Shown: positions 29,161-53,446, counted from the first letter of the stretch. The stretch: DNA of 64,000 nt from Alphaproteobacteria bacterium (GCA_965277685.1 OZ255830.1:14829-78828); one strand, 5' to 3'. The notes: generated by a model from the sequence alone, not told the origin. Numbers and translations: made by a program.

Positions 29161-29218
29161 CCCGCGACAGATGGTTTGATAGCACTTTTACCGACCGCGA
29201 CAGATGGTTTGATAGCAC
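29161..29218. repeat. Left-end transposase-binding-site-like repeats: two direct copies of cgcgacagatggtttgatagcac, inverted relative to the right-end copies.
   Basis: cccgcgacagatggtttgatagcac at 29161-29185 and ccgcgacagatggtttgatagcac at 29195-29218. The reverse complement matches 20 of 24 bp with the 53401-53446 copies. Confidence 0.7.
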
Positions 29219-29539
29219 CCCGATCGGCGCAACGCCCGATGGGATAAGGGCTAGAGGGTGATTTTCGGCCCGACCGAACAACGAAGAAAAACGTAGCTGT
29301 TCCGAATCGACTTATTACTTCACCTGTGAGGCGCGGTTTTCTGCCATTTCCATCAAAACCCGATGCACAAATACCCCGGACTTGCGGCATTTGTGAATTA
29401 AAAGGGGTATAGAGCGATGGATATACAATCATAAATATATCCAAGGGCAAAATCGGCCAATAAGGAAGAATGGGAATGTCCATGGACGAATGACCATCAT
29501 ATCATGGCCGCTATGTCACCGATGAAGGTTCAAGGAACG

Positions 29540-30105
29540 CTATTCGACCGGGCGCGAGCCAACCGAACGGCGATCTGGGCCCGAATGGTTGCCTTGTCCG
29601 ATGGTGCCGCCGCGGGGTTCTGGGCGTTGTATCCGCGTTGACGGCGGCGTTAGACCGGTGATTGAGAATCGGCGAATCGGCCTTTCGACCGGGCGCGAGC
29701 CAACCGGGCGGCGATCTCGGCCCGAATGGTTGCCTTGTCCGATGGTGCCGCTGCGGGGGTCTGGGCGTTGTATCCGCGTTGACGGCGGCGTTGGACCGGT
29801 GATTGAGAATCGGCGAATCGGCCTTTCGGACCGGGCGCGAGCCAACCGGGCGGCGATCTGGGCCCGAATGGCTGCCTTGTCCGATGGTGCCGCCGCGGGG
29901 GTCTGGGCGTTGAATCCGCGTTGACGGCGGCGTTGAACCGGTGATTGAGAATCGGCGAATCGGCCTTTCGACCGGGCGCGAGCCAACCGAACGGCGATCT
30001 GGGCCCGAATGGTTGCCTTGTCCGATGGTGCCGCTGCGGGGGTCTGGGCGTTGAATCCGCGTTGACGGCGGGCGTTGAACCGGCGAATCGGCCGTGATTG
30101 TGGGG
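29540..30105. repeat. Minisatellite: unit of about 130-140 bp, about 4.3 tandem copies, between the element's left end and the repressor gene.
   Basis: cggcgaatcggcctttcgaccgggcgcgagccaacc recurs at about 29541, 29681, 29811 and 29951 with near-identical intervening sequence. The repetitive minus-strand ORFs across it are artefacts. Confidence 0.85.
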
Positions 30106-30249
30106 GCGCACGATATGGGCTTAACTTCCAGGTGAATGGACGATGCCTCCTGTATCGCGCGCCCCCTGACATCTTCTCCTAACGGCAATATAAACCGTGA
30201 CGGGAAATATCAACCCCGCGCGCCTTATTATCGCCTTATTATTTTGGGG

Positions 30250-30879
30250 TTAATCGGTTTTGGCCTTTGGCGGGGTGTTTTCTTCTTCCCGGGGCTTCTC
30301 ATCTTTATTTTTCAGGAACTTCTCATCTGCGGACAGAAAGCGACGCACGTCATGTTTCTTGCCGGTGGATATTTTATGTTTTCGTAATTCGCGGATTTTC
30401 TTAATCTCAATATCCAGCTTTTCCTGAAATTCTTCCCAGCAATGTGCGGCAAACTTGGGATAATCGAGGGGGTGGTGGCGAAATAATTTCAGCCTGACCA
30501 GGATCATCAAGAATTGCCGCAAGGTTTCCTGGAACCAGTCTTTCGACATCGCTTCGCGCCAATCATCAGGTGCCCCGTCCGGCTTGAGGGCCTGGGGAAT
30601 GCCGTCACCGTCCGCCGGGGGCGTCGATTGCGATCCGGCCGGGCGCATCTCACCCTCGCCCGTGGCCAGCCACTCCAGAGACACACCCACAGCACCGGCC
30701 AAACGTGATAACGCGGTGAAAGATGGCGTGCTTTCCCCTTTGCAATAGCGGTTCAGCTGCTCAACGGTAACACCGGCAACTTCACTCGCTTGCTTTTTCG
30801 ATGAGAAAAGATTGATTGCATCTTTAATGCGAGAATTTAGCCCACTATCACGAAATAATGTCTTGACCTTATGTCGCAT
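30250..30879 (-). CDS. Phage repressor-like HTH (XRE/Cro-C1 family) transcriptional regulator, transcribed leftward like Mu c.
   Basis: HTH segment QASEVAGVTVEQLNRYCKGESTPSFTALSRLAGAVGVSLEWLATGEG; divergent from the Ner-like gene. Confidence 0.7.
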   Translation of the reverse strand: MRHKVKTLFRDSGLNSRIKDAINLFSSKKQASEVAGVTVEQLNRYCKGESTPSFTALSRLAGAVGVSLEWLATGEGEMRPAGSQSTPPADGDGIPQALKPDGAPDDWREAMSKDWFQETLRQFLMILVRLKLFRHHPLDYPKFAAHCWEEFQEKLDIEIKKIRELRKHKISTGKKHDVRRFLSADEKFLKNKDEKPREEENTPPKAKTD

Positions 30880-30913
30880 TTATGCTGTTTATCCAAATCT
30901 TGACGAAGAAAAG

Positions 30914-31198
30914 ATGACAAAGGGTCGCATTAAAGCGTTTATAGAGGATGCTGGCATGACACTTCATGGGCTATCAACCCGACACGGACTGCGCCCTGAT
31001 GCGTGTTCAGTGGCCCTTCGTAAGGGACACCCTGAAGGCGAGGCGGCGATAGCAACTGTGTTGGGGATAGCGGCGGCGCGGATATGGAAGGAGCGCTATG
31101 GCCCCGACGGGCGGCGGTTAAAACCGCAACCATGGGCGAATGATCGGCACGATCGGGGTATTCGATCGACCGCGGCGGACCGACAACGGGCGGCATAG
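30914..31198 (+). CDS. Ner-like (Mu Ner/Nlp family) DNA-binding regulator.
   Basis: GLRPDACSVALRKGHPEGEAAIATVLGIAAARIWKERY closely parallels the Mu Ner C-terminus (GYAPTTLANALERHWPKGEQIIANALETKPEVIWPSRY). Confidence 0.7.
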   Translation: MTKGRIKAFIEDAGMTLHGLSTRHGLRPDACSVALRKGHPEGEAAIATVLGIAAARIWKERYGPDGRRLKPQPWANDRHDRGIRSTAADRQRAA

Positions 31199-31203
31199 TC
31201 ATC

Positions 31204-31623: not shown

Positions 31624-31693
31624 AACAAGCGGAATTCTCTCCCGTTATGAGGCCGTGGGCGGATTCCCGGCATGAAACCTTTGGTGGTTTTTA

Positions 31694-31933
31694 ATGTCGC
31701 GCATTGATAGCTATATAACCCGTCCGAACGGCACCTTGAAAAAGGCCCATGCCGAGCCTATCAACGCATGCGGCGGGCTTGAGGCGGCGGCGGAAATGTG
31801 CCGCGTGTCGGTGCGTTCATTATCCAATTATTGCAACCCGGAACAGGCCAAGGCGCATATGCCGGTTGAGGTGGTCCAGGCGCTGGAGTGGGTATCTAGG
31901 AAAAATCCCGTATCGAGCTATCTGGCGGTATGA
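31694..31933 (+). CDS. Small hypothetical protein (Mu-like early region).
   Basis: 79-aa ORF whose stop overlaps the start of the ParB-like gene. Confidence 0.4.
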   Translation: MSRIDSYITRPNGTLKKAHAEPINACGGLEAAAEMCRVSVRSLSNYCNPEQAKAHMPVEVVQALEWVSRKNPVSSYLAV

Positions 31934-32877
31934 GTGGCGTTGTCGATATTGCCCTTGACCGGATCGAAATTGTCGATCGGGCCCGGCCGGTGGCATCGGC
32001 GCGGGTCGATCGGCTTGCCGCATCGATGGCGACGGAAGGGTTGCGCGCGCCGGTTCTTTTAAAGCCGATTCGCACCCGCAATATTGGCACGGGCAAGGTC
32101 GGTAAGGCAGTGATGCCGTCATCCTATCGGGTGATTGTCGGCGCGGCCCGGGTCGAAGCGGCCCGGCAATTGGAATGGAAAACGATAAGGGCCGAATTGC
32201 GCGATGGTATCAAAGTTGCCGATGCCGCCGCCCTTGAAATTGACGATAATTTATCCCATAGCGACCTGACCAAACTGGAATCGGCCCTGATGCTCGCCGC
32301 GCGCAAGCGGCTGTATGAGCAAGAAAACCCGGAAAGCCGCAACGGCGCGTGGGGAAGTCCCGCAAAATACAGAAATGAGAACGACAATTTGTCGTTCTCA
32401 AAGTTTATGGCGGATCGGATCGGTGTCCATCACCGCACGATCGAGCGCATGGTGCGCCGCGGTCAGGAAATCAGCCGCGCGGCGGCCGATACCCTTATCC
32501 TTAACGGGTCACCGGTGGCCGATTGCGATGTTGACCTCGATAGTCTTGCCGGACTTGCGGCCAATCATCAAATCGAGGCGGCGCAATGGGCGGTCGCGGC
32601 CGACACCGGCGAGCGGCGCCGGATACGAAAATGGCGCGAAGAACATGCGGGCAAACCGGCCGGCAATGTTCATGATTTCCCGAAAAAGTCACCATTAACG
32701 AAGAAAGACCAAGAAAACCTTGGCCTGACCCGCCTGCAAGGGGTGTGGTTTGAAACGCAGGTCGAGGATCGGTTGAAGTTTGCCGATTGGCTGCACGAGC
32801 GCGGGGAAATCACCGCCGCGCAAGCCGAGAAAATAAAAATCGCGGCCCGGCGCGATCCGGTCGTGTCATGTGGATGA
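31930..32877 (+). CDS. ParB-like nuclease domain protein.
   Basis: IALDRIEIVDRARP...RVDRLAASMATEGLRAPVLLKP...YRVIVGAARVEAARQL is a ParB N-terminal domain pattern, as in the early regions of transposable phages. Confidence 0.7.
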   Translation: MSGVVDIALDRIEIVDRARPVASARVDRLAASMATEGLRAPVLLKPIRTRNIGTGKVGKAVMPSSYRVIVGAARVEAARQLEWKTIRAELRDGIKVADAAALEIDDNLSHSDLTKLESALMLAARKRLYEQENPESRNGAWGSPAKYRNENDNLSFSKFMADRIGVHHRTIERMVRRGQEISRAAADTLILNGSPVADCDVDLDSLAGLAANHQIEAAQWAVAADTGERRRIRKWREEHAGKPAGNVHDFPKKSPLTKKDQENLGLTRLQGVWFETQVEDRLKFADWLHERGEITAAQAEKIKIAARRDPVVSCG

Positions 32878-33075
32878 CGGCGCCAGCGAACCGCCCGGCA
32901 ACGCCGCGTGGGCGTTCGCGTGTGAGCGTCCCAAAGGGGGACGCGTATTCAAAAATGAGGATGCCGTCATGTCGATGACGGCACCGGCGAACCGCCCGGG
33001 GCGTTCGCGTGTGAGCGTCCCAAAAGGGGACGCGTATTCAAAAATGAGGATGCCGTCATGTGGATGACGGCATCC
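32862..33075. promoter_or_regulatory. Tandem repeat of about 95-100 bp (two copies plus a partial third) carrying three copies of a perfect 22-bp palindrome tgccgtcatgt(c/g)gatgacggca. The last palindrome contains the transposase start codon. Candidate operator or enhancer.
   Basis: Direct repeat gtcatgtggatgacggc.ccagcgaaccgcccgg...gcgttcgcgtgtgagcgtcccaaa.ggggacgcgtattcaaaaatgaggatgccgtcatgt.gatgacggca. The palindrome was confirmed by reverse-complementing by eye. Confidence 0.6.
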
Positions 33076-35235
33076 GAGATTGCGACTTTGCGGTTGCCGG
33101 AATTACCGGCAACGGATGTCGGCATTCGAGCGCGGGCGCAAAAAGACGCATGGCGGTCACGCCGGCGGGCGGGGCGCGGCGGCGGCGTGGAATTTGCCCT
33201 TGAAAGCCTACCGGCCGAAGCGCGCAAGGCGTATCTCGGCACCGATCCGACCCCGGCCATCGACGGCAACCGCCACGATCCGGACAAGATGGATGCGAAA
33301 CTGACCATCATTCAGGTGGCGGCGGCGTGGCGCAAGGCGCAAAGCCTGTCCCTGCGCCGGGGCGAGGCGCAATTTTCGACCCTTTATAATGAAGGCTTGA
33401 TCGATGTGCCGGACTGGACCCGGCGGATTGTGCCGCATTTAAGCGCGGCGAGCCTGGCCCGGTGGCGCAAAATCAAGGATGCGGGGGGATATCGCCGCCT
33501 TGGTGGTGATTATGGCAATCGTTCCGGCACGTCACGCATCGAGCGGGCGGCCAGCGGCGCGGTGGCCGTGAAAATCGCCGCCCTAAAATGCAAGCAACCC
33601 CATTTGACCGCTTATAATATCAAAAGCATTATTTTAAGTGAGTTTAAGGGTGTTTTTGGTAAAAACCCGCCGCCGGTGCGCGCTTTTCAGCGTTTTATTG
33701 CCGAATGGAAAGATAAGAACGCCGAATCGTATCTTTACCTGACCAATCCCGATAAGTGGAAGGGCAGTCGCCGTTTTGCCACCGGGCGGATGTATGATCA
33801 TATCACCACGCCCAATCAGCTTTGGGAAATCGATGCATCCCCGGCCGATGTCATGACGACCGAAGGGCGGCGCAATCTGTATATGGTGATTGATATTGCG
33901 ACCCGGCGGGTCATGGTATCGGTGACGAAAACGGCGCGTAGTGACGCGATGCTTGCCCTTATCCGGCGGGCGATGCTGGTATGGGGGGTGCCGACCACGA
34001 TTCGCACCGATAACGGCAAGGATTTTGTATCGCGGGCGGCAAAGCGGGTCTTTACCGCCCTTGATATTCATCAGGATATCGCGCCGCCCTTCACACCGGA
34101 GGCCAAAGCGGCGGTCGAGCGGGCATTTCGGACATTACAACACGATTTAATGCCGCTGATCCCGGGCTATGTCGGGCATAACGTGGCCGACCGGCAGGAA
34201 ATCCGCGCGCGCAAGAAGTTTGCCCGGCGGCTTGGCGAGGACAATCGGAAAATCTTTCACATCGATACGGATGCGGCCGGTCTGCAATCGACCATCGATG
34301 CCTGGATTGCCAAGAAATACGAACATAAACCCCATGCCGGACTTGGCGGCAAAACGCCCTTTGCGGTGGCGGCGGCCTATGACGGCGTTATTCGCAAGAT
34401 CGAGAACGAGCGGGCGGTCGATATGCTGCTTGCGCCGGCGGCCGATGGCGATGGTTATCGCCAGGTGACCAAGCGCGGCATTCGGGTGGCGGGGGCTTAT
34501 TTTATCGGATCGGGATTAACGCCCGGCATGCGGGTTTTTGTCCGTTTTGACCCGGTCGATTTAGGGCGGATTTACGCCTTTACCGATGAATACGGCGATT
34601 TTATCGCCGATGCGATATGCCCGGAGCGGGCCGGTGTCGATCGGGTGGCGGCGGCAAGGGCGGCAAGGGCCGAGCAAGGGCGGCGAATAAGGCAAGAAGT
34701 CCGGCCACTCCAACAGGAAATCAACCGGATCAAGGACACCGATATGGTGGATGCGGTTCTTGGCGAGGCAGAGCGGCAAAACGGCAATATCACGGCGTTT
34801 CCACAGCGGGTCGATGCCCATACGACGCCCGCCCTTAAAGCAGCAGGGGAAGCGGCCAGGGAGACAATAGGGGAAGCAGCCGGGGACGCGGCCCGTGAAA
34901 CAATGGGGGAAGCGGCCCTTGAAGCGACCGGGGAAGCGGCCGGGGAGGTGGCCGGGGAGACAATGGGGGAGACAATGGGGGATGGGGCGCGGCAACACCT
35001 TATCGCCGATATGGCAACGGCCAAGCGGGCCCGCACCGATCCGATGGCGGATAAGGAAAGACGCTTTGCCCGGTGCCGCGATTTACAAAAAAAGCAGATA
35101 AACGGCGCCGCGATTAGTGATGATGACGCGCGCTGGCTGGAAAATTACGAAACCACGCCGGAATACCACGCGAAAGCGGCGATGGAGTCCGATTTTGCCG
35201 TTTTGGAAAAACCACGGGTGGCCGCGCATGGATAA
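33058..35235 (+). CDS. Mu-type DDE transposase A (rve/integrase-core superfamily).
   Basis: N-terminal DNA-binding region; catalytic core WEIDASPADVMT...YMVIDIATRRVM...IRTDNGKDFVS...ERAFRTLQ (D, D, E triad context). The C-terminal low-complexity GEAAGE repeat is encoded by a DNA repeat at 34850-34990. Immediately followed by a B-like ATPase. Confidence 0.8.
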   Translation: MWMTASEIATLRLPELPATDVGIRARAQKDAWRSRRRAGRGGGVEFALESLPAEARKAYLGTDPTPAIDGNRHDPDKMDAKLTIIQVAAAWRKAQSLSLRRGEAQFSTLYNEGLIDVPDWTRRIVPHLSAASLARWRKIKDAGGYRRLGGDYGNRSGTSRIERAASGAVAVKIAALKCKQPHLTAYNIKSIILSEFKGVFGKNPPPVRAFQRFIAEWKDKNAESYLYLTNPDKWKGSRRFATGRMYDHITTPNQLWEIDASPADVMTTEGRRNLYMVIDIATRRVMVSVTKTARSDAMLALIRRAMLVWGVPTTIRTDNGKDFVSRAAKRVFTALDIHQDIAPPFTPEAKAAVERAFRTLQHDLMPLIPGYVGHNVADRQEIRARKKFARRLGEDNRKIFHIDTDAAGLQSTIDAWIAKKYEHKPHAGLGGKTPFAVAAAYDGVIRKIENERAVDMLLAPAADGDGYRQVTKRGIRVAGAYFIGSGLTPGMRVFVRFDPVDLGRIYAFTDEYGDFIADAICPERAGVDRVAAARAARAEQGRRIRQEVRPLQQEINRIKDTDMVDAVLGEAERQNGNITAFPQRVDAHTTPALKAAGEAARETIGEAAGDAARETMGEAALEATGEAAGEVAGETMGETMGDGARQHLIADMATAKRARTDPMADKERRFARCRDLQKKQINGAAISDDDARWLENYETTPEYHAKAAMESDFAVLEKPRVAAHG

Positions 35236-36010
35236 TAGAGGGGATAGTCGAGGGGATAGTCGAGGGGATAATATGGAGCGCACAATACACGGGACAACCG
35301 CACCGGTGAGAAATGTCGCCCTATTCAATGAATTGGCCGAGCGCGTCATTCGCCGTCCCGGCCATCTTCCCGGGATGGCCGTTTTTCACGGGCCCAGCGG
35401 CTTTGGCAAGACGTTCAGTGCCACGTACGCCGCGAACAAGCATCTGGCTTGCTATGTCGAGGTCGGCGCGAGTTGGACGCGCAAGAAATTCTGTCAAGAA
35501 GTTCTTCGCCAATGCGGCGGTGATCTGCACGGTCGCCGGACGACATGCGACATAATGGACACGATTATCGGCACATTGGCCGATGAAGAAAGGCTTTTGA
35601 TCATCGATGAGGCCGATTTTGTCATGGACAAGGGCTTTATGGACTATGTGCGGGAGATTTACGAAAAATCCGGCGCGCCGATCATCTTGATTGGCGAGGA
35701 AACCCTGCCCGGCAAGATGCGGGTCGCGGATCGCTGCCATAACCGAATTATGGACTGGGTGCAGGCGGTTGCCGCCAACGGCGATGATACTCGCTATCTG
35801 GCCGGGCTATACGTGCCGGGGCTTCGTATCGATGACGGATTGCTGGCGCGCATCAACAAGGTATCCCATGGAAGGATACGGCGGATTTGCGTCAATCTCG
35901 AGCGGGTGCGGGAAGCGGCCGCTTTGGAGGGGTGGAAATCGGTATCATTGAAGGAATGGGCGGATCGCCCCCTGTTTACCGGCGAGCCACCAAAAAGGCG
36001 GGTTTTGTAA
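35228..36010 (+). CDS. MuB-like AAA+ ATPase (transposition target-capture protein).
   Basis: Walker A FHGPSGFGKTFSA and Walker B LLIIDEADF; its start overlaps the transposase stop. Confidence 0.75.
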   Translation: MDNRGDSRGDSRGDNMERTIHGTTAPVRNVALFNELAERVIRRPGHLPGMAVFHGPSGFGKTFSATYAANKHLACYVEVGASWTRKKFCQEVLRQCGGDLHGRRTTCDIMDTIIGTLADEERLLIIDEADFVMDKGFMDYVREIYEKSGAPIILIGEETLPGKMRVADRCHNRIMDWVQAVAANGDDTRYLAGLYVPGLRIDDGLLARINKVSHGRIRRICVNLERVREAAALEGWKSVSLKEWADRPLFTGEPPKRRVL

Positions 36011-36720
36011 TGGCCGGCGTGTCGGTATCGGAAGAAATCCGCCTCGACCTTCGCATTCCCCGCGGGGCGCAAGGATATTGGGATGTGATCCGGGTGATCG
36101 GCCGTTCCGGCCGCACCTTCGCGATGAGAGACATAAAAGACGTCTTTCACCTGATTAATCGGTGGGTGGTCGGCGACAATGGCCATTGCCCGGGTCAAGA
36201 TGACATCAGTGAGTATATTTCACGCTTGGTCAAGGGCGGCTATATCACGAAAAAAAACGGCATGATGGAATTGGTCAAGGATGCCGGGCAATGCGTTCCC
36301 CGTTTAAAGCGGGACGGATCGCCGACCCGCGCCGCGACCGGGCAGGATTATATGTGGCGGGCGATCCGAATGAACAAGGTATTTTCGCCCAAAGAGTTGA
36401 TGATCGCCGCATCCACCGATGCCGTTAAAATCACGATGCAAACCGCGAAAGACTATATCAAGCACCTAAAAGCGGCCGGGTATCTAAAGGTTGTCACACC
36501 CCACCAAGGGGGACGAAAGGCGGCCGTATATCGCCTTTATCCCAATCGGGCGACCGGCCCGGCCGCGCCGCAAGTGATGCGCGATAAGCGGGTCTATGAT
36601 CCCAATATCAAGCGGGTGATGACGCCGCAGGCGGCGAAGGCACCTAAAGTGACGGGCAAAACAACCGGCAAGATGACGGATAAGATGGCCAATAAGATGA
36701 TGGGCAAGGTCGCGGCATGA
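36010..36720 (+). CDS. Hypothetical phage protein (position equivalent to the Mu semi-essential early region).
   Basis: Start overlaps the stop of the B-like ATPase gene; lysine-rich repetitive C-terminal tail. Confidence 0.5.
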   Translation: MAGVSVSEEIRLDLRIPRGAQGYWDVIRVIGRSGRTFAMRDIKDVFHLINRWVVGDNGHCPGQDDISEYISRLVKGGYITKKNGMMELVKDAGQCVPRLKRDGSPTRAATGQDYMWRAIRMNKVFSPKELMIAASTDAVKITMQTAKDYIKHLKAAGYLKVVTPHQGGRKAAVYRLYPNRATGPAAPQVMRDKRVYDPNIKRVMTPQAAKAPKVTGKTTGKMTDKMANKMMGKVAA

Positions 36721-37343: not shown

Positions 37344-37808
37344 ATGGTTGCGATTGCACGCCGATCGGCGAAAGCAGAACCGGCGATGACCCGCAAAACC
37401 CTGATGGCGCGTGTCCATGTCGGCGCCAAGACCCTTGGCATGGATGAGGATACGCGCCGCGCTTGGATGGAAAATCTTGTCGGACAGCGCTCGTGCATCG
37501 ATTGCACCGATGGGCAATTAAAGCGGCTTGCCGATGATATGAAGCGGCAAGGGGCAACGACCGATCGATGGCGGCCGTCACAAAAACGCTATGTGCGCAA
37601 AATTTGGGCCTTGTGGGGCGATATGAAACGGCGCGGCCTATTGGCCGATGCCAAAGATCCGCGCGCCTGGCTTGTCGGCTTTGTCCGGCGTCAAACCGGC
37701 GTTGATAATCCCGAATGGCTAAGCCCGGATCAGGCAAACAAGGTGATTGAGGGGTTAAAATCGATCATTGATCGCGCCCCCTTTGGGGATGCCGATGCCG
37801 GATCGTGA
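37344..37808 (+). CDS. GemA-like (Mu gp16, DUF1018) protein.
   Basis: TRKTLMARVHVGAKTLGMDEDTRRAWMENLVGQRSC..LTDGQLKRLADDMKRQG matches the gp16/GemA family pattern; it lies between the transposition module and the Mor-like gene, as in Mu. Confidence 0.65.
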   Translation: MVAIARRSAKAEPAMTRKTLMARVHVGAKTLGMDEDTRRAWMENLVGQRSCIDCTDGQLKRLADDMKRQGATTDRWRPSQKRYVRKIWALWGDMKRRGLLADAKDPRAWLVGFVRRQTGVDNPEWLSPDQANKVIEGLKSIIDRAPFGDADAGS

Positions 37809-38136
37809 CGAATATAAAGATATGCCGCGCTCGATGCAGGATATTGTCTCACTTATCGGGCGTGAAGCAACGTTGAAATTGCTTTTTCACCACGGCGGTG
37901 AGCGTTTTTACGTATCCGTATCGACCAAGGATCAAATTGCTCATGCCATTGGACAAGAGGCCGCGGATACGCTGGTAGAGAATTATAAAAGGGATTTTTT
38001 AGAATTGCCGCATGCAAAGCGAGCGGTCGCTGAATTCTTGTTCGCTCAAGGCTGGGAAAAGAAAGCAATTCAACAACATTTGCAAATTAATCGCCGCACT
38101 CTTGCCAGGTGGTTTAGAGGGGCAGATGCCCCATGA
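37768..38136 (+). CDS. Mor/C-family transcription activator (Mu middle/late activator homologue). The true start is probably an internal Met at 37789-37834.
   Basis: RSMQDIVSLIGREATLKLLFHHGGERFYVS...; C-terminal HTH AIQQHLQINRRTLARWF, typical of the Mor family. Confidence 0.6.
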   Translation: MIAPPLGMPMPDRDEYKDMPRSMQDIVSLIGREATLKLLFHHGGERFYVSVSTKDQIAHAIGQEAADTLVENYKRDFLELPHAKRAVAEFLFAQGWEKKAIQQHLQINRRTLARWFRGADAP

Positions 38137-38168: not shown

Positions 38169-38582
38169 ATGGCTACCCCACGCGGCATACGAAACCATAA
38201 TCCCGGCAATATCGAGCGCACCGGCACGCCGTGGCGCGGCATGGCCCACGATCAGTCCGGAGATGAGCGCTTTATCGTTTTTGAAAAGGTGGAATACGGC
38301 ATTCGGGCGATGGCGCGGATTTTACGTGTTTATCAGAAGAAGCATGGATGCCGGACGGTGAGGGATATTATTAACCGATGGGCGCCGCCGGTGGAAAACA
38401 ACACGCAAAGCTATATCAACCATGTCGCCGAGGTTTGCGGCGTTGACCAAGATCAACCGATTTCCCTTTATGACGATCGCGTGGTGGCGCGCCTGATTAA
38501 GGCGATCATTCATCATGAAAACGGCGATCAGCCCTATGATAACGCCACGATCCATCGCGGTATTTTGATGGAGGAATCCTGA
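38169..38582 (+). CDS. Conserved phage protein; candidate endolysin or peptidoglycan hydrolase, based on position immediately upstream of the holin.
   Basis: 137 aa, IRNHNPGNIE...W.G motif, which I recall seeing in phage lysis or virion-associated proteins but cannot assign to a named family. Its stop overlaps the holin start. Confidence 0.35.
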   Translation: MATPRGIRNHNPGNIERTGTPWRGMAHDQSGDERFIVFEKVEYGIRAMARILRVYQKKHGCRTVRDIINRWAPPVENNTQSYINHVAEVCGVDQDQPISLYDDRVVARLIKAIIHHENGDQPYDNATIHRGILMEES

Positions 38583-39125: not shown

Positions 39126-39149
39126 ATCCAGTCCCTTGGCGTGGTCGAA

Positions 39150-45020: not shown

Positions 45021-45835
45021 TGCTTTACGCCGAGCCAAGAAATCTGTCCGCTCAAGGGTTTGACGCTATGCTCACCCTTGATGGTGGCCTCAATAAAATC
45101 ATCAAGACAGCCCTGGGCAAGCGTGACGATTGGTTCGACCTCCCACGGTTTGTCTATGTCCACGTGCCCGCCGGGGTCAAGATCGGGTCGGAAAAACCCG
45201 CATGGGCCGGGCTTACCACCGGCAGTGGCTGGTCGGCAGGCAGTCGCATCCTTCTTGTCAATGACGGCAAAGTATTGGGCGCCGGCGGCAAGGGGGCTAA
45301 TCCGGACGACAACGGGCAGGATGGCGGGACGGCTTTACGTATCCACCAGGGCATCCATGTGGTTTTAGAAAATTCAGGGACGATTGCCGGCGGTGGCGGC
45401 GGCGGCGGTAGTCAGGGGGGCACATGGTGGGATCGCAAATGGGGCAATATTGGACATGGATGCGGTGGCGGCGGTGCCGGATACCAACCCGGGTTGGGGG
45501 GATACCCCATTGGCACCGGGACGGAACGCGACCATGACCGTAACGTGAATGGGCGGCGGGTTCGCTACCAGGAAGGTGACCCCGGCACGGAAACCACCGG
45601 CGGTGGTGGCGGGCGAAGGGACCTTCGTGGACGCGGTTCCGGTGGCGGCCGGCGTGGTGGCGACTTGGGGATGGCGGGGGAACCAAACCGCGACGGAAGA
45701 AATGGCGCTGCCGGGGCTTGGGTGGAAATACGCACGGGCGCAGAATTAATCGTTCGCGAAGACGGGCAAACCCTGGGCACGCGCAAAACCGACGTTGCAG
45801 CATTCCGCAGCGCGGATTTGGCACCCAACGAATAA
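45020..45835 (+). CDS. Glycine-rich hypothetical protein downstream of the tail fiber gene.
   Basis: 271 aa with multiple GGGGG tracts and a GxGxxG-type low-complexity core; occupies the P2 gpG / pyocin chaperone position. Confidence 0.45.
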   Translation: MLYAEPRNLSAQGFDAMLTLDGGLNKIIKTALGKRDDWFDLPRFVYVHVPAGVKIGSEKPAWAGLTTGSGWSAGSRILLVNDGKVLGAGGKGANPDDNGQDGGTALRIHQGIHVVLENSGTIAGGGGGGGSQGGTWWDRKWGNIGHGCGGGGAGYQPGLGGYPIGTGTERDHDRNVNGRRVRYQEGDPGTETTGGGGGRRDLRGRGSGGGRRGGDLGMAGEPNRDGRNGAAGAWVEIRTGAELIVREDGQTLGTRKTDVAAFRSADLAPNE

Positions 45836-45855
45836 TAACGAAAGGATAGATCATC

Positions 45856-46476
45856 ATGCCTTTATACGCACATCTAAAAAACGGCGAGGTCTTTGACATA
45901 AAACCCAACGCCGCCACTATCGCGTCGGCGGATATACCGCGCGATCAGGATAGGCGGCCAACGATGCTGCCCTATCAAGAAGAGGGGCTGGATGGGGATA
46001 AGGACAATGCCCCAGACCTGTGGACAAGGAGCAAAACCAACCAAGTGGGCGCGGCAAAAGTCGTCGGACTTTATAGCTATGCTCTCAAAAACGATATTGA
46101 AGAGGCTTTGCTGCGCCGTGTTGATGTCCACGTAAAGGTTATCCACGCCGATATTGCCGGCAGCGACAATCTTTGCGCGCTACGCGTTCTAATTTCTTGC
46201 GAGGGCGAGGCGCGCCGCTACCTAGCGGCCGATAATCCCGTCGCCGGCGACTACCCCTTGCTGGCACAAGAAGTGGGGCAGCATCCCGATACGGCTGATC
46301 TGGCGGCGGCAGCGCGCCAATGCCTTGCCGGCTATGCGGCCTTCGCGCGCAAGGTGCAAATGGTGAATATGATGGCAGCCGGCATCAAGCAAGCCATTCG
46401 TGACGCAAATGATAGCGTGGCAAAATTGGCGGCGTATCAGGATGCCGATTTCACCCGGTGGGAACAGAATCTTTAA
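45856..46476 (+). CDS. Hypothetical protein (tail module, between the fiber region and the sheath gene).
   Basis: 206-aa ORF in operon context; no motif recognised. Confidence 0.45.
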
Positions 46477-46516: not shown

Positions 46517-47947
46517 ATGACAACATCTTATTTACACGGTATCGAGACACTCGAACTTGACCAAGGGGTGCGACCGGTTCGCACGCTGAAGTCCAGCATT
46601 ATCGGTCTCATCGGCACGGCCGATGACGCCGATGCAAAGGCGTTCCCTTTGAACACGCCGGTTTTGGTCCGCGCCCAAGATATGAAGGCGGGACAAAGCA
46701 AACTTGGCGATTCCGGCACCCTTAAAAACGCCATGGACGGAATTGCCGACCAGGGCGGCGCCCAAGTGGTGCTGGTCCGGGTTGCCGGCGGGGGCAGCGA
46801 ATCCGCGACCATCGCCAATATCATCGGCGAGCGGGGCAATCGCACCGGCGTGCATGCGTTTGCCGCGGCACAATCCACGGTCCATGTAACACCGCGTATC
46901 TTGGTCGCCCCGGGCTTTACCCACCAGCGTCCCAAAGCCGTAGCGAGTGTGACCGTTAGCAACCAAGGCAGTGGTTATACATCTGCCCCGACCGTGTCCT
47001 TTTCCGGTGGCGGTGGCTTCGGCGCGCAAGCAACCGTGACCGTGACCGATGGTGAAGTGACCGCCATCACCGTCACCAAATCGGGCAATGGTTATACATC
47101 CGCCCCCACCGTCACCCTATCCGGCGGGGGTGGCACGGGTGCGAGCGTAACGGCCGTGCTTGGCGATAGTGCCAATCCGGTCGTGGTCGAACTGACCGGC
47201 ATTGCCGATCGCTTAAAAGCGGTCATCATCGCCGATGGACCAAACACAACCGATGCGGCGGCCATCACCTACCGCAAAGACCTTGGTTCCCCTCGCGTCT
47301 TTGTTGTCGATCCGTGGGTCAAAGTGGCCCGTGGCATCGACATGCAAGATGAGGGCGCATCGCCCCGGGTTGCCGGATTGATCGCCAAGATGGATGAGGA
47401 CAAGGGCTTTTGGCACTCGCCATCCAATCAGGTCATCAATGGCATTGTCGGCGTGTCCCGGGCGGTGGATTTTGCCCTTGATGACGCGAACTCGGCGGCG
47501 AACCATCTAAACGCCAACGAAGTTGCGACCATCATCCATCGCGATGGCTATCGCCTGTGGGGCAATCGCTCTTGCAGCAGCGATGCGCTATGGGCATTCT
47601 TGGCGGTGCGGCGCACGGCCGATATGGTTTACGAATCGGTCACGGCCGCCCATGCCTGGGCCTTGGATCGTCCTTTCAGCACGCAGTTGCTGGAAGATAT
47701 TGCCGGATCGGTGAACGCCTATCTGCGCGAACTTGAATCGCGCGGTGCAATCATCGGCGGATCATGTTGGCTTAACCCCGACAAGAATACGGCCGCATCC
47801 CTGAAGGACGGACACTTGCATGTCGATTTCGACATCGAGCCACCGGCACCGATGGAACGGCTGACCTTCACCGCCGCGCGCAATGACGGCTACTACGACG
47901 AATTGGTCGCGAGCGCGTCCATCAACATCCGCCGCACCGCGGCCTAA
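46517..47947 (+). CDS. Contractile tail sheath protein (P2 FI family).
   Basis: AGGAGT ribosome-binding site. N-terminus [48 protein letters not shown] parallels P2 FI ([47 protein letters not shown]). Confidence 0.85.
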
Positions 47948-47986: not shown

Positions 47987-48499
47987 ATGGCACAATATCC
48001 GAAAATACTGAAAAACTTCACGGCCTATGTCGACGGCATCGGCTATGCCGGTAGAATCGAGGAAGTGGAACTTCCCAAACTGGCCGTCAAGACCGAGGAA
48101 TACCAAGGTGGCGGCATGGCCGCGCCGGTTGAAATCGACATGGGCACGATGGACAAGTTGGAAGCAACGTTGACCTTTGCCGAATACGACCCTGATTTAT
48201 ACAAGCAATGGGGGCTGATCGGCAAAGAGATCGGCATGACCCTTCGCGGGGCCATCCAACAACCCGGCCCGGCGGCGGCAACGCCTTATGTGGTCGAGTT
48301 GCGCGGCAAGTTCCGTGAACTGGATAGTGGTTCATGGAAAGCGGGCGAGAAAGCCCAGCTTAAGGCGACCATCGCTGCCCGTTACTACAAGCTAAGCATC
48401 GATGGCACGGCGGTCATTGAGATCGATCCGGTCAATATGAAGCGGGTTGTCGGTGATACCGACCAGCTTGCCGACCAGCGTCAAGCTCTTGGTCTCTAA
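47987..48499 (+). CDS. Tail tube protein (P2 FII family).
   Basis: VELPKLAVKTEEYQGGGMAAPVEIDMGTMDKLEATLTF is the FII conserved core. Confidence 0.8.
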   Translation: MAQYPKILKNFTAYVDGIGYAGRIEEVELPKLAVKTEEYQGGGMAAPVEIDMGTMDKLEATLTFAEYDPDLYKQWGLIGKEIGMTLRGAIQQPGPAAATPYVVELRGKFRELDSGSWKAGEKAQLKATIAARYYKLSIDGTAVIEIDPVNMKRVVGDTDQLADQRQALGL

Positions 48500-48584
48500 C
48501 CGGGGGCCTCTAATAGGGCGTCTAATGAGGCCTCTCACGGGGCCTCTAACGGCGTGTCTAACGGGCGTCTAACGGAACCGTGTA

Positions 48585-48863
48585 ATGAGAAAGAAACAGA
48601 CAATGAGCGATAACAAAACCATCACCCTTAAATATCCGTTTGAGCATGATGGAATGAATATCACCGAGTTGCCTTTGCGCCGTCCCAAGGTCGGCGATAT
48701 GGAAGCGATGGAAAAGAACGGCAGTTCCGAAATGGCCAAAGCCATTGGACTAACCGCGCGCTTGTCGGGATTAGCACCCGATGCCGTGCGCAAGATTGAT
48801 GGCGAGGACTTTATCGCCATCAATAAGGTGCTGTCCGATTTTTTGGACATGGGCGGGGGATAA
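48585..48863 (+). CDS. Tail assembly chaperone (P2 gpE / Mu gp41 family).
   Basis: 92 aa, immediately before the tape-measure gene and followed by a short ORF in the -1 frame. Confidence 0.65.
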   Translation: MRKKQTMSDNKTITLKYPFEHDGMNITELPLRRPKVGDMEAMEKNGSSEMAKAIGLTARLSGLAPDAVRKIDGEDFIAINKVLSDFLDMGGG

Positions 48864-48871
48864 GGGATGCC

Positions 48872-49003
48872 ATGGCCGACATCGCTTTTGCTTTTCACTG
48901 GTCGCCGGATGCTATGCGGGACATGACGCTGGACGAATTATCCGATTGGCACGCCCGGGCCATGACCCGGATTAAAGCGGCTTATTCTTTGGGCGCGAAG
49001 TAA
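48872..49003 (+). CDS. E'-like ORF (-1 frame extension of the chaperone). It is probably expressed only as an E+E' fusion by programmed frameshifting. Coordinates are uncertain by a nucleotide.
   Basis: 43 codons (MADIAFAFHWSPDAMRDMTLDELSDWHARAMTRIKAAYSLGAK) in the -1 frame relative to E. Its stop overlaps the tape-measure ATG (tAATGg). Confidence 0.45.
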   Translation: MADIAFAFHWSPDAMRDMTLDELSDWHARAMTRIKAAYSLGAK

Positions 49004-51171
49004 TGGCCAATTTTAATGTGTCCATCATCGCCCGGCTAGTCGACCGGATGACGCCCGCCATCAAGCGGATATCGACGTCGATCGGGCGATGGGACAAGCA
49101 AACGCGCAAGACCGAAAAAGGGTCGGATCGCCTATATCGGGCAACGGCACGGACCAACGACCGTATCGGTCAATATACCCGTTCTGCGCGCAGGGCCGCC
49201 AACGCGACGAATGAAATGGCGGCGGCACAGGGTTCCTTTATGAGAAGCATCGATGCTCAAGGCAAGGCGTTAAGACGGGAGTTGTCGGCATTATCGCTTG
49301 GCCGTGCAATCAACCGCAGCGCCATGGCATCGATCCGTGCCCTTGGTGAGGTAGAGCGCGCCACCGGTGCGTTGGCCACGATCGGGGTGAAAAATCTAAC
49401 CATGATGACCAAAGCCGGACAGGACATGGAACGTCAATGGGCGGGGATCACCGCCGCCGATTTTATCCGGGCCGCTTATGATATTAAATCCGGCATATCG
49501 ACCCTCGATGATGCGGGGGTGGCATCGATGACCCGTGCGGCGGCCCTTACCGCCAAGGCAACCAAAAGCCAAGTCACGCAGATGACGTCTTTGTTCGCTG
49601 CATCGTATGGGATATTCAAGCGCCAGTTTTCCGAACTATCGGACGGTGATTTCGGCCATCTGTTTGCGGCGGCGCTGGCCAAATCGGTGCAGCAGTTCAA
49701 AACCGGCGCCAGCGCTATGCAGAGTGCTATTGAGAGTGCCGGGGCAGGGGCGGCCAATATCGGCATGGCAATGGACGAGCAGCTGGCCGTGTTGGGTATG
49801 ATGCAGGCCCAAATGCAGCCCGGCGAGGCAGGGACATCGTTGCGTGCCTTTGCCACCAATGCGGCCAAAGCCCACCAAGCGTTTCAAGAACTGGGTGGTG
49901 ACGTCGCCATCCTCGACGAAGACGGCATGTTACGGGCCATGCCCGCCATTTTGGCCGACCTTGGATCCCGCTACGGCAAGACTTTGGACGCCATCGAAAC
50001 CGATGAAATCCAAAAGGCCTTTGGCACCGATGAAGCGATGAAGCTGATCCGCGCCCTGTGGGGGCAAGAGGCAGCGCTGCGCGGCAATGCGCGCGCCCTG
50101 AACATGGCAGCCAAGGAAGGATTGCCATTCGTCGATAGGATGGCGCGATTGGCCGATAATAGCTTCCAGTCACGTCTGGATCGGATAACGCAAAGCTTCA
50201 ACGTCATGAACCAACGCATTGGCAAAGCCTTGGTGCCGACCTTCGACAAGTTGATCCCCTTAGTGGAAAAGGTGACGATGTTCATTGCCGATTTTGCCGA
50301 AGCGCATCCCGGCTGGACTGCGGCGATCGGGGCTTTGGCAATGGCGATTGGTGCCGTCGCCAGCGTGGTCGGCAACTTAATCATGGTCCTTGCGGGGGCA
50401 AAGACACTGGGGTTTTCTTTCACCGGCGCCATGAGGGGGGTCGGAAGATCGGTGATGGGTGCCGTGGGTGCCTTCCGCTCTTTAAGCATCTGGACCTTGA
50501 CCCTTGGCCGCAGCTTTGCCGTTTTTGCGTTCACATCGGTCGTCTCGATGGGCGCGTCCCTGCTCGGTCTTGCCCGGGGTGTCATTCCGATGGTGATTGC
50601 CGGCTTGCGTATATTGACGGTGGCGATGATGACCAACCCGGTCGGCCTGGTCATTGGCGGGATTGCTTTGGCGGCGGGGTTGATCATTGCCAACTGGGAA
50701 AAGGTCAAATCGTTCTTTGCCACTATTTGGGATGCCGTCAAGCCGGTCTGGGAAGTCTTTGCTAAATGGCTTGGCACTTTTTTTGATATCATTCTGGCCC
50801 CGTCCCGGTGGATCTGGGACAAGCTTTCGTCCCTCGGTGGCCTTGTCTCCGGCCTCGATGGTGGAAGTAACGACGAGAAACCACCATCCACCGCGATGAA
50901 TGACCGTCCTTGGGCAAATGACGCGAAACCACCATCCACCGTGATGGCTGACAGCCCTTGGGCACCCGGCAACACGACATCCTCGACAATATCGAACACA
51001 TCCCAAAACACATCCCGGAATACGTCCCAAAACACATCCCAAAACACATCCCAGTCCAATCACTTTACGATCAACGCCGGGCCGGGCCAGGACGTGCGAT
51101 CGATCGCCGATGAAGTGGCCCGTATCTTGCGCCACGATCGTTTGGCGGCGGGTCACGACGGGGCCTATTGA
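49003..51171 (+). CDS. Tail tape measure protein.
   Basis: 722 aa, alpha-helical, with central hydrophobic segments, in the position after E/E'. The C-terminal NTSQ repeats are encoded by a DNA tandem repeat at about 50870-51060. Confidence 0.75.
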   Translation: MANFNVSIIARLVDRMTPAIKRISTSIGRWDKQTRKTEKGSDRLYRATARTNDRIGQYTRSARRAANATNEMAAAQGSFMRSIDAQGKALRRELSALSLGRAINRSAMASIRALGEVERATGALATIGVKNLTMMTKAGQDMERQWAGITAADFIRAAYDIKSGISTLDDAGVASMTRAAALTAKATKSQVTQMTSLFAASYGIFKRQFSELSDGDFGHLFAAALAKSVQQFKTGASAMQSAIESAGAGAANIGMAMDEQLAVLGMMQAQMQPGEAGTSLRAFATNAAKAHQAFQELGGDVAILDEDGMLRAMPAILADLGSRYGKTLDAIETDEIQKAFGTDEAMKLIRALWGQEAALRGNARALNMAAKEGLPFVDRMARLADNSFQSRLDRITQSFNVMNQRIGKALVPTFDKLIPLVEKVTMFIADFAEAHPGWTAAIGALAMAIGAVASVVGNLIMVLAGAKTLGFSFTGAMRGVGRSVMGAVGAFRSLSIWTLTLGRSFAVFAFTSVVSMGASLLGLARGVIPMVIAGLRILTVAMMTNPVGLVIGGIALAAGLIIANWEKVKSFFATIWDAVKPVWEVFAKWLGTFFDIILAPSRWIWDKLSSLGGLVSGLDGGSNDEKPPSTAMNDRPWANDAKPPSTVMADSPWAPGNTTSSTISNTSQNTSRNTSQNTSQNTSQSNHFTINAGPGQDVRSIADEVARILRHDRLAAGHDGAY

Positions 51172-51172
51172 T

Positions 51173-52141
51173 ATGGCCGATATTATGTTAGCACTGGGGG
51201 AATACCGCTTTTCCATAGACCACGCCGCCTATCAGTCACTCCGGCGCACGGCGCGATGGAAATGGGCGGCGCAAGATAGAATTGGCCACGCGCCAAGTTT
51301 GCATTACACCGGTAATGGGGCTGAAGAAATCGAGCTGTCGGGCACGATTTACCCCCATTTTCGCGGCGGCACCGGTCAGATTGAAAATATGCGGGCGATG
51401 GCCGGCGAGGGACAGCCTTTGGTCATGTCGGGCGGCAGTGGCCGGCATCATGGCAATTGGGTGATAGAGGAAATCGAGGAAGACGAGGCGGCGTTCTTAA
51501 AAGGCGGCACGGCGGCAAAAGTGGGCTTTCGTCTGCGCCTTAAACGCTATGTCGGCCAAGCCCATTCAACCGGAAAGCCCGCATCATCCGCAGGTGTTGG
51601 CCAATTATCGCGGATGGCACCGCTATCGCCACCGATTGCCGATTTACCGGAACGCCTTCGCCCCGTGGCGAATGACCTTCCCCTTGGCACGGATGTGGTT
51701 GCCTTGGAACAATCTTTGTATCGGGTTCGGCATATCCGGGGCGGTGATGAAATGGCGGCGATAAACTGGGTGCGCGGGCAGGCCAATACGCTTGGGCTTG
51801 GTGGCTTTAACGCCATGTTGGGCAATCTGGCCAATGATACGCCGCTATCGGTGGCGCAAGATATGGGGATTGCCGAATGGACCGGCGCAATACGGGCGCT
51901 ATCGTCCTTTACGGATCGTCCCGGCACGGCGGCCGGGCGACTGTTGGCCAAGCTTCCGGCCGTTTCTCGTGTGATGGGACTCCGCGCGGCGGCAACCAAC
52001 ACGCGGACACGTCTGCAATACGTCCGCCGCCATTGGAATGACCGTGATTGGCTCTCTCGACCCGGTTGGCCTTACGGCAAGGACGATCATGACCTGATGG
52101 GCTTGCTGTTGGCCCGGATGATGATGGGCGGTGCGTCATGA
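51173..52141 (+). CDS. Tail protein U (P2 gpU family) with a C-terminal extension of about 200 aa.
   Basis: MADIMLALGEYRFS...RIGHAPSLHYTGNGAEEIELSGTIYPHFRGG....ENMRAMAGEGQPLVMSGG.G...G.WVIEEIEE.E.AFLKGG.AAKVGFRLRLKRY follows gpU over about 140 aa. The ORF then continues without a stop to 52141. Confidence 0.75.
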   Translation: MADIMLALGEYRFSIDHAAYQSLRRTARWKWAAQDRIGHAPSLHYTGNGAEEIELSGTIYPHFRGGTGQIENMRAMAGEGQPLVMSGGSGRHHGNWVIEEIEEDEAAFLKGGTAAKVGFRLRLKRYVGQAHSTGKPASSAGVGQLSRMAPLSPPIADLPERLRPVANDLPLGTDVVALEQSLYRVRHIRGGDEMAAINWVRGQANTLGLGGFNAMLGNLANDTPLSVAQDMGIAEWTGAIRALSSFTDRPGTAAGRLLAKLPAVSRVMGLRAAATNTRTRLQYVRRHWNDRDWLSRPGWPYGKDDHDLMGLLLARMMMGGAS

Positions 52142-52344
52142 TGTATTATCGGACAAACGATGGCGACATGCTGGACGTGATTTGTTGGCGTCACTACGGC
52201 CGCACTTCCGGCGTCGTCGAACAGGTGATGGAAGCAAACCCGGGGGTCGCATCGATGGGCGCGGTATTGCCGACCGGAATGGTGATTATGCTGCCGGATA
52301 TTACGCCCGCGCGCGAGACCACTATCGTGCGCCTCTGGGACTAG
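52138..52344 (+). CDS. Tail protein X (P2 gpX family, LysM-like).
   Basis: YRTNDGDMLDVICWRHYGRTSGVVEQVMEANPGVASMGAVLPTGMVIMLPDI compared with P2 gpX FALQGDTLDAICVRYYGRTEGVVETVLAANPGLAELGAVLPHGTAVELPDV. Confidence 0.85.
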   Translation: MMYYRTNDGDMLDVICWRHYGRTSGVVEQVMEANPGVASMGAVLPTGMVIMLPDITPARETTIVRLWD

Positions 52345-52347
52345 GCC

Positions 52348-53307
52348 ATGCGCCCGGCCTGGACGATACGCGCCGACAGCACCGACATCACGGCGGCGAT
52401 CCGCGATTATTTAAGCGAAATGCGGATTGAGGACGGTATTGGTGACAAGCCGGATTCGATCACCTTGACCATAGATGGCGATGGCGTGACCGTGCCGCGC
52501 ACCGGCGCATTGCTGGAAGCGTCCATCGGTTATCGGGATACGCCCTTGGTCAAGCAGGGCCTTTATAAGGTTGACGAGATCGAGGTCAGTGGCCCGCCAA
52601 CCCGGATTCGCATTACCGCAGGGGCGGCCAATTATCGGGAAAAGATGAAAGCCCATAAATCCCGGTCGTGGCGGGGCCGCACCTTGGGCGCAGTGATTAA
52701 TGTCATTGCGGCCGAACATGGATTAAAGCCCAGGATCGATGCGGAACTTGGCGCCATTGAACTGCCCCACAAGGATCAGGTCGGGGAAAGCGATCTGCAT
52801 TTCTTGCGCCGGATCGCCCGTGATTATGGCGCGGTCGTCAAACCGGCCGATGGCAATCTTATCTTGGCCAAACGCGGCCAAGGCAAAAGCGTGTCGGGTA
52901 AATCGATCCCATCGATCACTCTCAATGCCAACGACGTCACGACCTGGCGGGGGGCCTTTAGCGAACGCTTGCGCTTTACCGCCGTCACCGCCCGTTGGCA
53001 TGACACGGACGCGGGGCATGATATCGATGTCAACGTGGGCGATCGATCCGGGCCTATCTATACCCTGAAGCAAGTCTATCGTGACGCGAGCGCCGCTCGC
53101 CATGCGGCCCAGGCTAAAATGGAGGCGCTTAGGCGGGGCAAAGCAAGCCTGTCTATCACCATGCCCGGCCGTCCGGCCATCCAGGCCGAAAGCCTTCTTA
53201 CCATTACCGATATCGCTGTCATCCGTGGCTCTTGGACCATCACCAAAACCACCCATGCCATCACCTCATCCGGCTTTACCACAAGCATCGAGGCCGAAAG
53301 CGCATAA
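52348..53307 (+). CDS. Late control/tail protein D (P2 gpD family).
   Basis: 319 aa; the gpD pattern includes DITAAIRDYLSEMRIEDGIGDKPDSITLTIDG and C-terminal ITMPGRPAIQAESLLTITDIAVIRGSWTITKTTHA. Confidence 0.8.
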   Translation: MRPAWTIRADSTDITAAIRDYLSEMRIEDGIGDKPDSITLTIDGDGVTVPRTGALLEASIGYRDTPLVKQGLYKVDEIEVSGPPTRIRITAGAANYREKMKAHKSRSWRGRTLGAVINVIAAEHGLKPRIDAELGAIELPHKDQVGESDLHFLRRIARDYGAVVKPADGNLILAKRGQGKSVSGKSIPSITLNANDVTTWRGAFSERLRFTAVTARWHDTDAGHDIDVNVGDRSGPIYTLKQVYRDASAARHAAQAKMEALRRGKASLSITMPGRPAIQAESLLTITDIAVIRGSWTITKTTHAITSSGFTTSIEAESA

Positions 53308-53400
53308 ATACCGCCAAGGCGAACCTTGCGCCGGGCAAAGCGATCATCACCAACACCACCTAAAAGCAGTGCCAAAACGACAATTTCGGTGGGTGAAAAG

Positions 53401-53446
53401 GTCGCAAACCATCTGTCGCGTGCTCGCAAACCATCTGTCGCGCTAC
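53401..53446. repeat. Right-end transposase-binding-site-like repeats: two adjacent copies, tcgcaaaccatctgtcgcg(t/c)(g/t)c.
   Basis: They are the reverse complement of the left-end repeats at 29161-29218. Confidence 0.7.

Follow-up and report, generated by a model that had tools for sequence, protein, structure and literature searches.

R-type tailocins such as R2 pyocin, BceTMilo, carotovoricin and R-type syringacin are encoded by a tail operon with lysis genes and without head genes. The described tailocins are conserved chromosomal loci that have lost their genes for replication, integration and transposition, and they are often regulated by the host. Carotovoricin is a "Mu-type tailocin" found in defective prophages, and its clusters are reported to lack a dedicated repressor (PMC13566846). 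R-type syringacin is a Mu-type tail that was co-opted as a tailocin, and its loci are fixed in the chromosome (PMC4542187). Neither is reported to keep the Mu transposition genes (PMC13566846, PMC4542187). For BceTMilo, deletion of the head from a P2-like phage was considered enough to make a tailocin (PMC5411513). Here we describe a Mu-like element in a 64-kb stretch of alphaproteobacterial DNA (OZ255830.1:14829-78828; "the window") that has contractile-tail and lysis genes, lacks head genes, and keeps MuA, MuB and both transposon ends.

The tail genes of this element follow the order V-W-J-I-H...FI-FII-E-T-U-X-D, as in R2 pyocin and P2. But unlike the known tailocins, it is not a domesticated locus without mobility genes: it has its own repressor, MuA and MuB, which are intact, and functional-looking transposon ends. 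It is also a singleton in the databases. The best 120 matches listed for MuA and for the sheath include just one each from the source contig, and the nearest relatives listed are 44–47% identical for MuA and 60% identical for the sheath. With Mu and BcepMu it shares an early module of MuA, MuB, GemA and Mor, TG...CA ends, an L1 site that is apart from L2-L3, and contiguous R sites; BcepMu also has P2-like tail proteins. However, Mu and BcepMu have full head modules and place the sheath and tube before the baseplate genes. We considered BcepMu as the closest architecture and rejected it because its tail genes are in the Mu order. In full-text searches of the literature we came across no description of a tail-only element with MuA, MuB and transposon ends retained, an arrangement that was likewise not recognised as described when the locus was first annotated from its sequence alone (the original prediction).

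Genes were assigned by searching the Pfam and PHROGs profiles (Table 1). The early region came out as originally predicted, with a repressor followed by Ner-like, ParB-like, MuA, MuB, GemA and Mor-like genes. The element has both a MuA-type DDE transposase and a MuB-type AAA+ partner, and these two genes are intact: D259, D318 and E354 of MuA fall in columns that are invariant across 24 homologues, and the translation of MuB shows a Walker A motif (GPSGFGKT) and a Walker B motif (LLIIDEAD). The start of MuB likely overlaps the stop of MuA. The tail cluster is complete, and S, Gp37-like, V, W, J, I, fibre, sheath, tube, E/E', tape measure, U, X and D genes could all be assigned. A canonical, conserved slippery site in the chaperone gene (T_TTT_TTG at 48839-48845) leads in the -1 frame to E', which ends with TAATG at the start of the tape-measure gene, and the E' peptide matches a tail protein (phrog_6416/1756). 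The sheath is 59–61% identical to those of full-length Mu-like prophages. A lysis cassette is linked to the tail genes. Its hydrolase (phrog_873), which is 52% identical to the lysis gene of a relative (L011), and its three-transmembrane holin (PF11351/phrog_3427) were correctly predicted, but the third gene, which was thought to be spanin-like, encodes a transmembrane and coiled-coil protein of phrog_736 and is at most a candidate spanin.

As originally reported, the 64 kb contain no gene for terminase, portal, protease/scaffold or capsid that could be found by tblastn, Pfam or PHROGs. The tblastn queries were TerS, TerL, portal, F, protease, capsid and gp36 from BcepMu and the head proteins of three relatives, and they matched only S and gp37 in the 64 kb. 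The remaining open reading frames (ORFs) have no Pfam family, and none of the gaps within the element could hold a head module. The element thus lacks the head and packaging module with which Mu-like phages make virions. It cannot form infectious virions, and it can spread only within a genome, by transposition, or passively.

The original prediction placed the left boundary at 29161, but this position corresponds to the internal sites L2 and L3; the true terminus is at 29017. The left terminus begins TGTAGCGCGACAGAT and is an inverted copy of the right terminus, which ends at 53447 with ...ATCTGTCGCGCTACA. Both ends have TG...CA termini with multiple predicted transposase-binding repeats. Their 16-nt core is present in four exact copies (L2, L3, R1 and R2) and, with 3 mismatches, in L1. 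Elsewhere in the window, the core has one match, in acs with 3 mismatches, and 0.76 matches are expected by chance. The layout of the sites, with L1 apart from an adjacent L2-L3 pair and with contiguous R sites, is that of Mu itself. The spacing of 141 bp between L1 and L2 resembles the 161 bp in related elements.

Five other Mu-like elements, inserted in different flanks, have conserved versions of these termini. At the left end, the terminal TGT..CGCG is common to the element and relatives. A scan of metagenomes with the 16-nt core returned mostly single matches due to chance, as well as five related Mu-like loci, of which four left ends served to validate the left terminus. These left ends read TGTGACGCGACAGATGGTTTG and lie in three different flanks (MuA is 34% identical, as measured in the two loci that reach the gene). 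At the right end, CGCGCTACA is common to the element, to a second headless element from Phreatobacter stygius (see below), and to three full-length relatives. Because core copies are found only at the ends and because the termini are shared with elements in other flanks, the Mu-type inverted-repeat ends of the element are judged genuine.

Several relatives of the element are complete prophages of 36–39 kb with the same synteny (loci L031+L030, L384+L034, L032, and L386 from Roseospira visakhapatnamensis). Their early genes are in the order repressor, Ner, ParB, A, B, phrog_2030, accessory genes, GemA and lysis. A head block follows (Gp27/TerS, TerL, portal, Mu F, protease/scaffold, decoration protein, capsid and Gp36), and then the tail genes S, Gp37-like, V, W, J, I, fibres, FI, FII, E, T, U, X and D, with Dam/Com-type genes at the end. 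The full-length relatives and the window element have the same early order, the same late tail order and the same termini (TGT..CG... on the left and ...CGCGCTACA on the right), and MuA of the L031+L030 prophage is 42% identical to that of the window. Only the relatives have the head module, the longer early accessory region, and the Dam/Com-type genes after D. In other words, the window element is missing a head module (~8.9 kb in the closest full-length relative), ~2–3 kb of early accessory genes, and the genes after D. Given the identical synteny in full-length Mu-headed prophages, the element is a head-deletion derivative of this alphaproteobacterial clade, which the original prediction had put forward as an alternative. 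The same comparison changes the meaning of the tail order. The order of P2 and R2 pyocin is indeed present, but it is no evidence for a Mu/P2 mosaic, nor for a relationship to pyocins, because full-length members of the clade share that exact order.

In a survey of ~160 MuA loci for baseplate genes that start no more than 10 kb after MuA, on its downstream side, one locus was positive. It belongs to Phreatobacter stygius, an isolate from the Hyphomicrobiales, and no head genes were found in the element. Its left part encodes an S24-type repressor, Ner, ParB, A, B, a phrog_2030-like protein, one ORF, GemA, Mor, an endolysin and, after it, a protein of the family also present in the window (phrog_736). 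The middle has an unknown ORF, a weakly Gp37-like ORF, V, W, J, I and a 9-kb fibre region, and the right part has the sheath, tube, chaperone, tape measure, U, a 75-aa ORF at the position of X, and D. Thus, this element resembles that of the window in being headless, in its retained gene set, in its compact early region, and in having D last. It differs in its S24 repressor, its Peptidase_M15_4 endolysin, and a radical SAM gene in the fibre region. Its G+C content is ~69% in the stretch examined. No S homologue could be detected in it; its ORF g2 was tried as a candidate and rejected, as it has no detectable homology. Both elements have long I proteins, but this is a coincidence, as they have in common only the N-terminal Tail_P2_I domain. 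Neither a second MuA scan, ranked on the Phreatobacter protein, nor a J-protein scan of viral contigs, which found mainly non-Mu P2-like phages, turned up further headless Mu-like elements.

The proteins of the two headless elements are only 38% (MuA), 29% (J) and ~30% (sheath) identical. The window's MuA is 42–47% identical to its nearest relatives, with TerL seen downstream of some of them, and its sheath and J are 59% and 44% identical to those of one full-length phage. The Phreatobacter MuA is 57% identical to that of an element on a 38,957-bp full-size contig, where TerL was not seen downstream. The nearest relatives of both headless elements lie on full-size contigs (37–39 kb). Because each headless element is closer to full-length relatives than to the other, the two are, as judged from these identities, not sisters, and heads were lost at least twice. 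Yet both were compacted in a similar way. From the end of MuA to the start of GemA we measured 2109 bp in the window and 1906 bp in Phreatobacter, the two shortest distances; the other loci have a minimum of 3132 bp and a median of 4350 bp (from 96 locus records, some of which are one contig fetched twice). The reductions in both elements spared MuA, MuB, lysis and every tail gene.

A 5-bp target-site duplication, which the original prediction proposed to look for, is absent. The window element is flanked by GTCGA and TACAA, the Phreatobacter element is flanked by GTACC and GGTGC, and no other placement of the ends works in either case. In contrast, two full-length relatives with both ends recovered have perfect 5-bp duplications (ACAGG and ATATC) beside their TGT...ACA termini. 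In Mu, unmatched flanks are expected from unresolved replicative transposition, from adjacent deletion, or from recombination between two copies. The loss of both the heads and the matching flank could even be explained by one unequal recombination event of this kind.

On balance, we favor the view that this is a headless Mu-like derivative that is non-infectious, probably transposition-competent, and tail-producing. We also lean towards the element being functional, that is, maintained as a transposition-competent producer of tails. We propose that upon loss of repression, the early operon would be turned on, and the copy number would rise as MuA and MuB transpose the element replicatively from its intact ends. 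Mor would then switch on the genes for lysis and for the tail, and contractile tails free of DNA would be assembled, be released by lysis, and act like an R-type tailocin. In Mu, middle and late transcription depends on replication. If this holds here, then it would provide a reason for a tail-only element to keep A and B.

The first alternative is a prophage that was crippled recently, by one or a few random deletions of the head module and other DNA, and that has no function of its own; its other genes would be intact only for want of time to decay. Its synteny with full-length relatives shows derivation by deletion, and its G+C content of ~58%, as compared to ~54–55% in the flanks, suggests that it has not ameliorated. 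Several other observations also weigh against a functional element. S is unusually short (105 aa, instead of 141–168 aa in relatives), and L1 does not match the core of the other four sites at 3 of 16 positions; either might be a defect. At the junction there is an orphan ORF of 67 aa with no Pfam or PHROG family and no similarity to the relatives. Headless cases are rare (one in ~160 MuA loci). The contrasts in target duplications and in the early region compare just two headless elements with two full-length ones, and the missing duplications could reflect rearrangement or age instead of transposition. Finally, neither headless element has a close relative with which purifying selection could be measured or the head loss dated. 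(We also considered a breakpoint inside S, of which only the C-terminal half matches the Pfam model, but rejected it: when S is aligned with three homologues, its internal gaps are scattered, and there is no clean truncation. A tblastx search of the junction found no remnants of head genes.)

However, a crippled prophage seems difficult to reconcile with at least 3 separate reductions that hit only functions that are dispensable for transposition, lysis and tails. The 2.2-kb MuA gene, MuB, ~15 tail genes and the frameshift site are untouched. Furthermore, an independent element from another order has the same retained set and the same early compaction. And a fresh deletion in situ should leave the 5-bp duplication, which is absent from both elements. 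The second headless element, the shared early compaction and the missing duplications together argue against a trivial fresh deletion, and we consider the crippled prophage possible but rather unlikely.

Another alternative, by analogy, is that the element is satellite-like: it would bring its own tail and host-range genes and be packaged, via its left-end (pac-proximal) region, into the heads of a co-resident full-length Mu-like helper. This would fit with the retention of both ends and of the left-end region, with the retention of the S and Gp37-like neck or tail-completion genes, and with a length of 24–27 kb, which would fit in a Mu-type headful. But the 64 kb show no sign of a helper phage, the source contig accounts for a single MuA and a single sheath in the top-120 lists described above, and no pac site was identified, so we consider this very improbable. 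It is harder still to believe in an assembly artefact that dropped the head module (such as by collapse between related prophage copies), as might be suspected because the source, a 1.63-Mb contig, appears to be metagenome-derived: the junction is in unique sequence with continuous overlapping ORFs, and the same architecture is found in the isolate P. stygius, in a single genome record of 7.35 Mb.

Returning to the view of a functional, headless Mu-like derivative, we can extend it, quite tentatively, to a class. Headless Mu-like elements might be recurrent "transposable tailocins" that arose at least twice in Alphaproteobacteria, that persist by replicative transposition rather than by infection, and that were streamlined to a repressor, MuA/MuB, ends, Mor, lysis and tail, with replication by MuA/MuB raising the dosage of the tail genes before lysis. 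Persistence by replicative transposition would explain why duplications are missing from the headless elements and present in the full-length ones. We doubt that this extended version is right in every part.

Table 1. Features of the headless Mu-like element, its flank, and related loci. Positions are in the window unless another locus is named; E-values are from profile searches.
Feature	Position	Strand	Remarks
Whole element	29017-53447		24,431 bp (24.4 kb)
Left terminus / L1 MuA-binding site (predicted)	29017-29044	+	TGTAGCGCGACAGATAGAGTGAGAGCAC; inverted repeat with 53420-53448
L2 and L3 sites	29162-29185, 29195-29218	+	two exact CCGCGACAGATGGTTTGATAGCAC copies, 33 bp apart
141-bp tandem repeat, 3.8 copies, non-coding	29543-30083		between left-end sites and repressor
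Repressor	30250-30879	-	HTH_3 / phage CI-type helix-turn-helix (HTH), no S24 peptidase domain; homologous to relatives' repressors
Ner-like winged-HTH	30914-31198 (ORF opens 30812)	+	PF13693 HTH_35, E=2.6e-15
Small early protein, weakly CII-like	31694-31933	+	phrog_101, E=2.7e-5
ParB-like early protein	31930-32877	+	phrog_3264, E=5.6e-33
MuA-type DDE transposase, 725 aa	33058-35235	+	PF02316 (HTH_Tnp_Mu_1), PF00665 (rve), PF09299 (Mu-transpos_C)
MuB-like AAA+ ATPase	35228-36010 (ORF opens 35117)	+	PF13401 (AAA_22), E=5.5e-16
Conserved early protein after B	36010-36720	+	phrog_2030 "transcriptional regulator"; after B in nearly all relatives
GemA	37344-37808	+	PF06252, E=2.8e-27
Mor-like late transcription activator (predicted)	37768-38136	+	phrog_836, E=1.3e-17; C-terminal HTH
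Endolysin / transglycosylase-like hydrolase	38169-38582	+	phrog_873, E=1.1e-59
Holin, three transmembrane segments	38582-38989	+	PF11351, E=3e-12; phrog_3427, E=9e-25
Transmembrane and coiled-coil protein, lysis-associated position	38937-39446	+	phrog_736; N-terminal 33-bp repeat x4
67-aa ORF of unknown origin	39443-39646	+	occupies the place of the relatives' head module
S-like tail completion / Neck1	39643-39960	+	PF05069 (model positions 75-145 alone), phrog_26
Mu Gp37-like	39957-40463	+	phrog_490/phrog_1072; PF08873 weak
Baseplate V	40457-40975	+	PF04717
Baseplate W	40972-41322	+	PF04965
Baseplate J	41319-42293	+	PF04865
Baseplate I	42290-43468	+	PF09684
Tail fibre	43488-45020	+	PF12571, E=1.5e-46; 126-nt repeat x4.8
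Gly-rich fibre/adhesin-like protein	45020-45835	+	fibre region; phrog_11439 given for 43488-46476
Unknown protein of fibre region	45856-46476	+	
Sheath FI	46517-47947	+	PF04984, PF17482
Tube FII	47987-48499	+	PF04985
Tail chaperone E (with E')	48585-48863 (to 49003)	+	PF10109
Tape measure	49003-51171	+	PF10145
U	51173-52141	+	PF06995
X	52138-52344	+	PF05489
D	52348-53307	+	PF05954
R2 and R1 sites and right terminus	53398-53447	-	ends ...ATCTGTCGCGCTACA
Tandem repeats	34838-34991, 35230-35270, 38991-39125, 43976-44596, 48494-48575, 50872-51053		
Host tRNA-Met	53482-53558	-	3' end 34 bp from right terminus; in flank, outside element
tRNA-adjacent right terminus, window	53447-53558		
tRNA-adjacent right terminus, L030	18592-18764		
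tRNA-adjacent right terminus, L034	18617-18811		
tRNA-adjacent right terminus, L032	18857-18998		
Headless element of Phreatobacter stygius (Hyphomicrobiales, isolate)	CP039690.1 3,355,498-3,382,584		27,087 bp

Tandem repeats, both in frame and intergenic, are unusually dense inside the element. Repeats of 12 nt are found in the C-terminus of MuA, the N-terminus of MuB and the C-terminus of the tape measure, and a 12-nt repeat is present six times between the tube and E genes. At the junction of ParB and MuA (32895-33072) there is an 89-bp tandem duplication whose copies are 90–97% identical, and each copy bears the hairpin-like GGATGCCGTCATG(T/G)(C/G)GATGACGGCA. The second copy contains the start codon of MuA, so the translation-initiation region of the transposase is duplicated. 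In both headless elements, the left-end sites are separated from the repressor by a repeat-rich non-coding stretch. In the window this stretch is 1233 bp and includes the 141-bp repeat, a region with no Rfam match and with overlapping ORFs that have no Pfam family. The counterpart in Phreatobacter has 13-bp-type repeats within 673 bp (locus L383, ~6760-6880, reverse strand). In the two full-length relatives, the corresponding distance is merely 169–215 bp. The small protein at 31694-31933 is conserved in relatives from Azospirillum and Roseomonas. At the other end of the element, U has an extension of ~190 aa (51557-52141) with no Pfam or PHROG family; U is 129–142 aa in the relatives, and the U of BcepMu is also long (296 aa).

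The left flank of the element consists of housekeeping genes (acs, an EVE-domain gene, gpsA and ispDF), as does the right flank, with tRNA-Met, mnmA and others. The best match to the host's Acs is 79% identical, and the named matches are 69–72% identical. Going by these matches, the host is a deep-branching Rhodospirillales-like alphaproteobacterium without a close sequenced relative. The contig with the 79% match (L036) was compared as a potential empty site. It is syntenic upstream of acs but ends 387 bp past this gene; it shares nothing with the element or the right flank, and no orthologous locus was found in it. Its sequence downstream of acs (7504-7890) has short tandem motifs of its own (AAGGGCCATTAAATCCG x2 and GAAAATCTAAGCCC x2), and it ends in a leftward ORF with a Lys/Glu-rich C-terminus whose sequence is unrelated to the window element. 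In the window, three 45-bp tandem repeats (28729-28862) begin at the stop codon of acs, just outside the element's left end. Each unit holds CGCTACAT, which resembles the element's right-terminal CGCTACA|T; this likeness is probably a coincidence.

In four of six elements of the clade, a tRNA gene on the opposite strand has its 3' end 34–103 bp from the right terminus; it encodes tRNA-Met in one case, tRNA-Ser(GCT) in two and tRNA-Val in one. Since the target duplications differ between the two tRNA-Ser cases, these are separate insertions. No such adjoining tRNA gene was found at the Phreatobacter element, which has no tRNA gene nearby, or at the Roseospira prophage. Adjacency to tRNA genes is far commoner than random insertion of the Mu type would give, which suggests that insertion is targeted, in a specific orientation, to sites downstream of tRNA genes. 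L385 from Azospirillum doebereinerae (RZIJ01000002.1, 13874-35289), which we looked at as a control for this adjacency, has a tail cluster in the P2 order: a PAAR/DUF6402 protein, W, J, I, fibres, sheath, tube, E, E', T, U, X, D and lysozyme, followed by host genes. No head or Mu genes were seen within its 21 kb, and its sheath is 57% identical to that of the window. From its gene content, L385 looks like a conventional R-type tailocin locus.

The known tailocins are end-products: immobile tail clusters that are regulated by the host. A tail-only element with a working-looking Mu transposition machine would be either a missing intermediate in the domestication of tailocins or a self-mobilising, self-amplifying bacteriocin. 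Because one of the two examples is in the cultured Phreatobacter stygius, the question is directly testable, and the contrast in target duplications between headless and full-length elements gives a concrete prediction of how such elements move.

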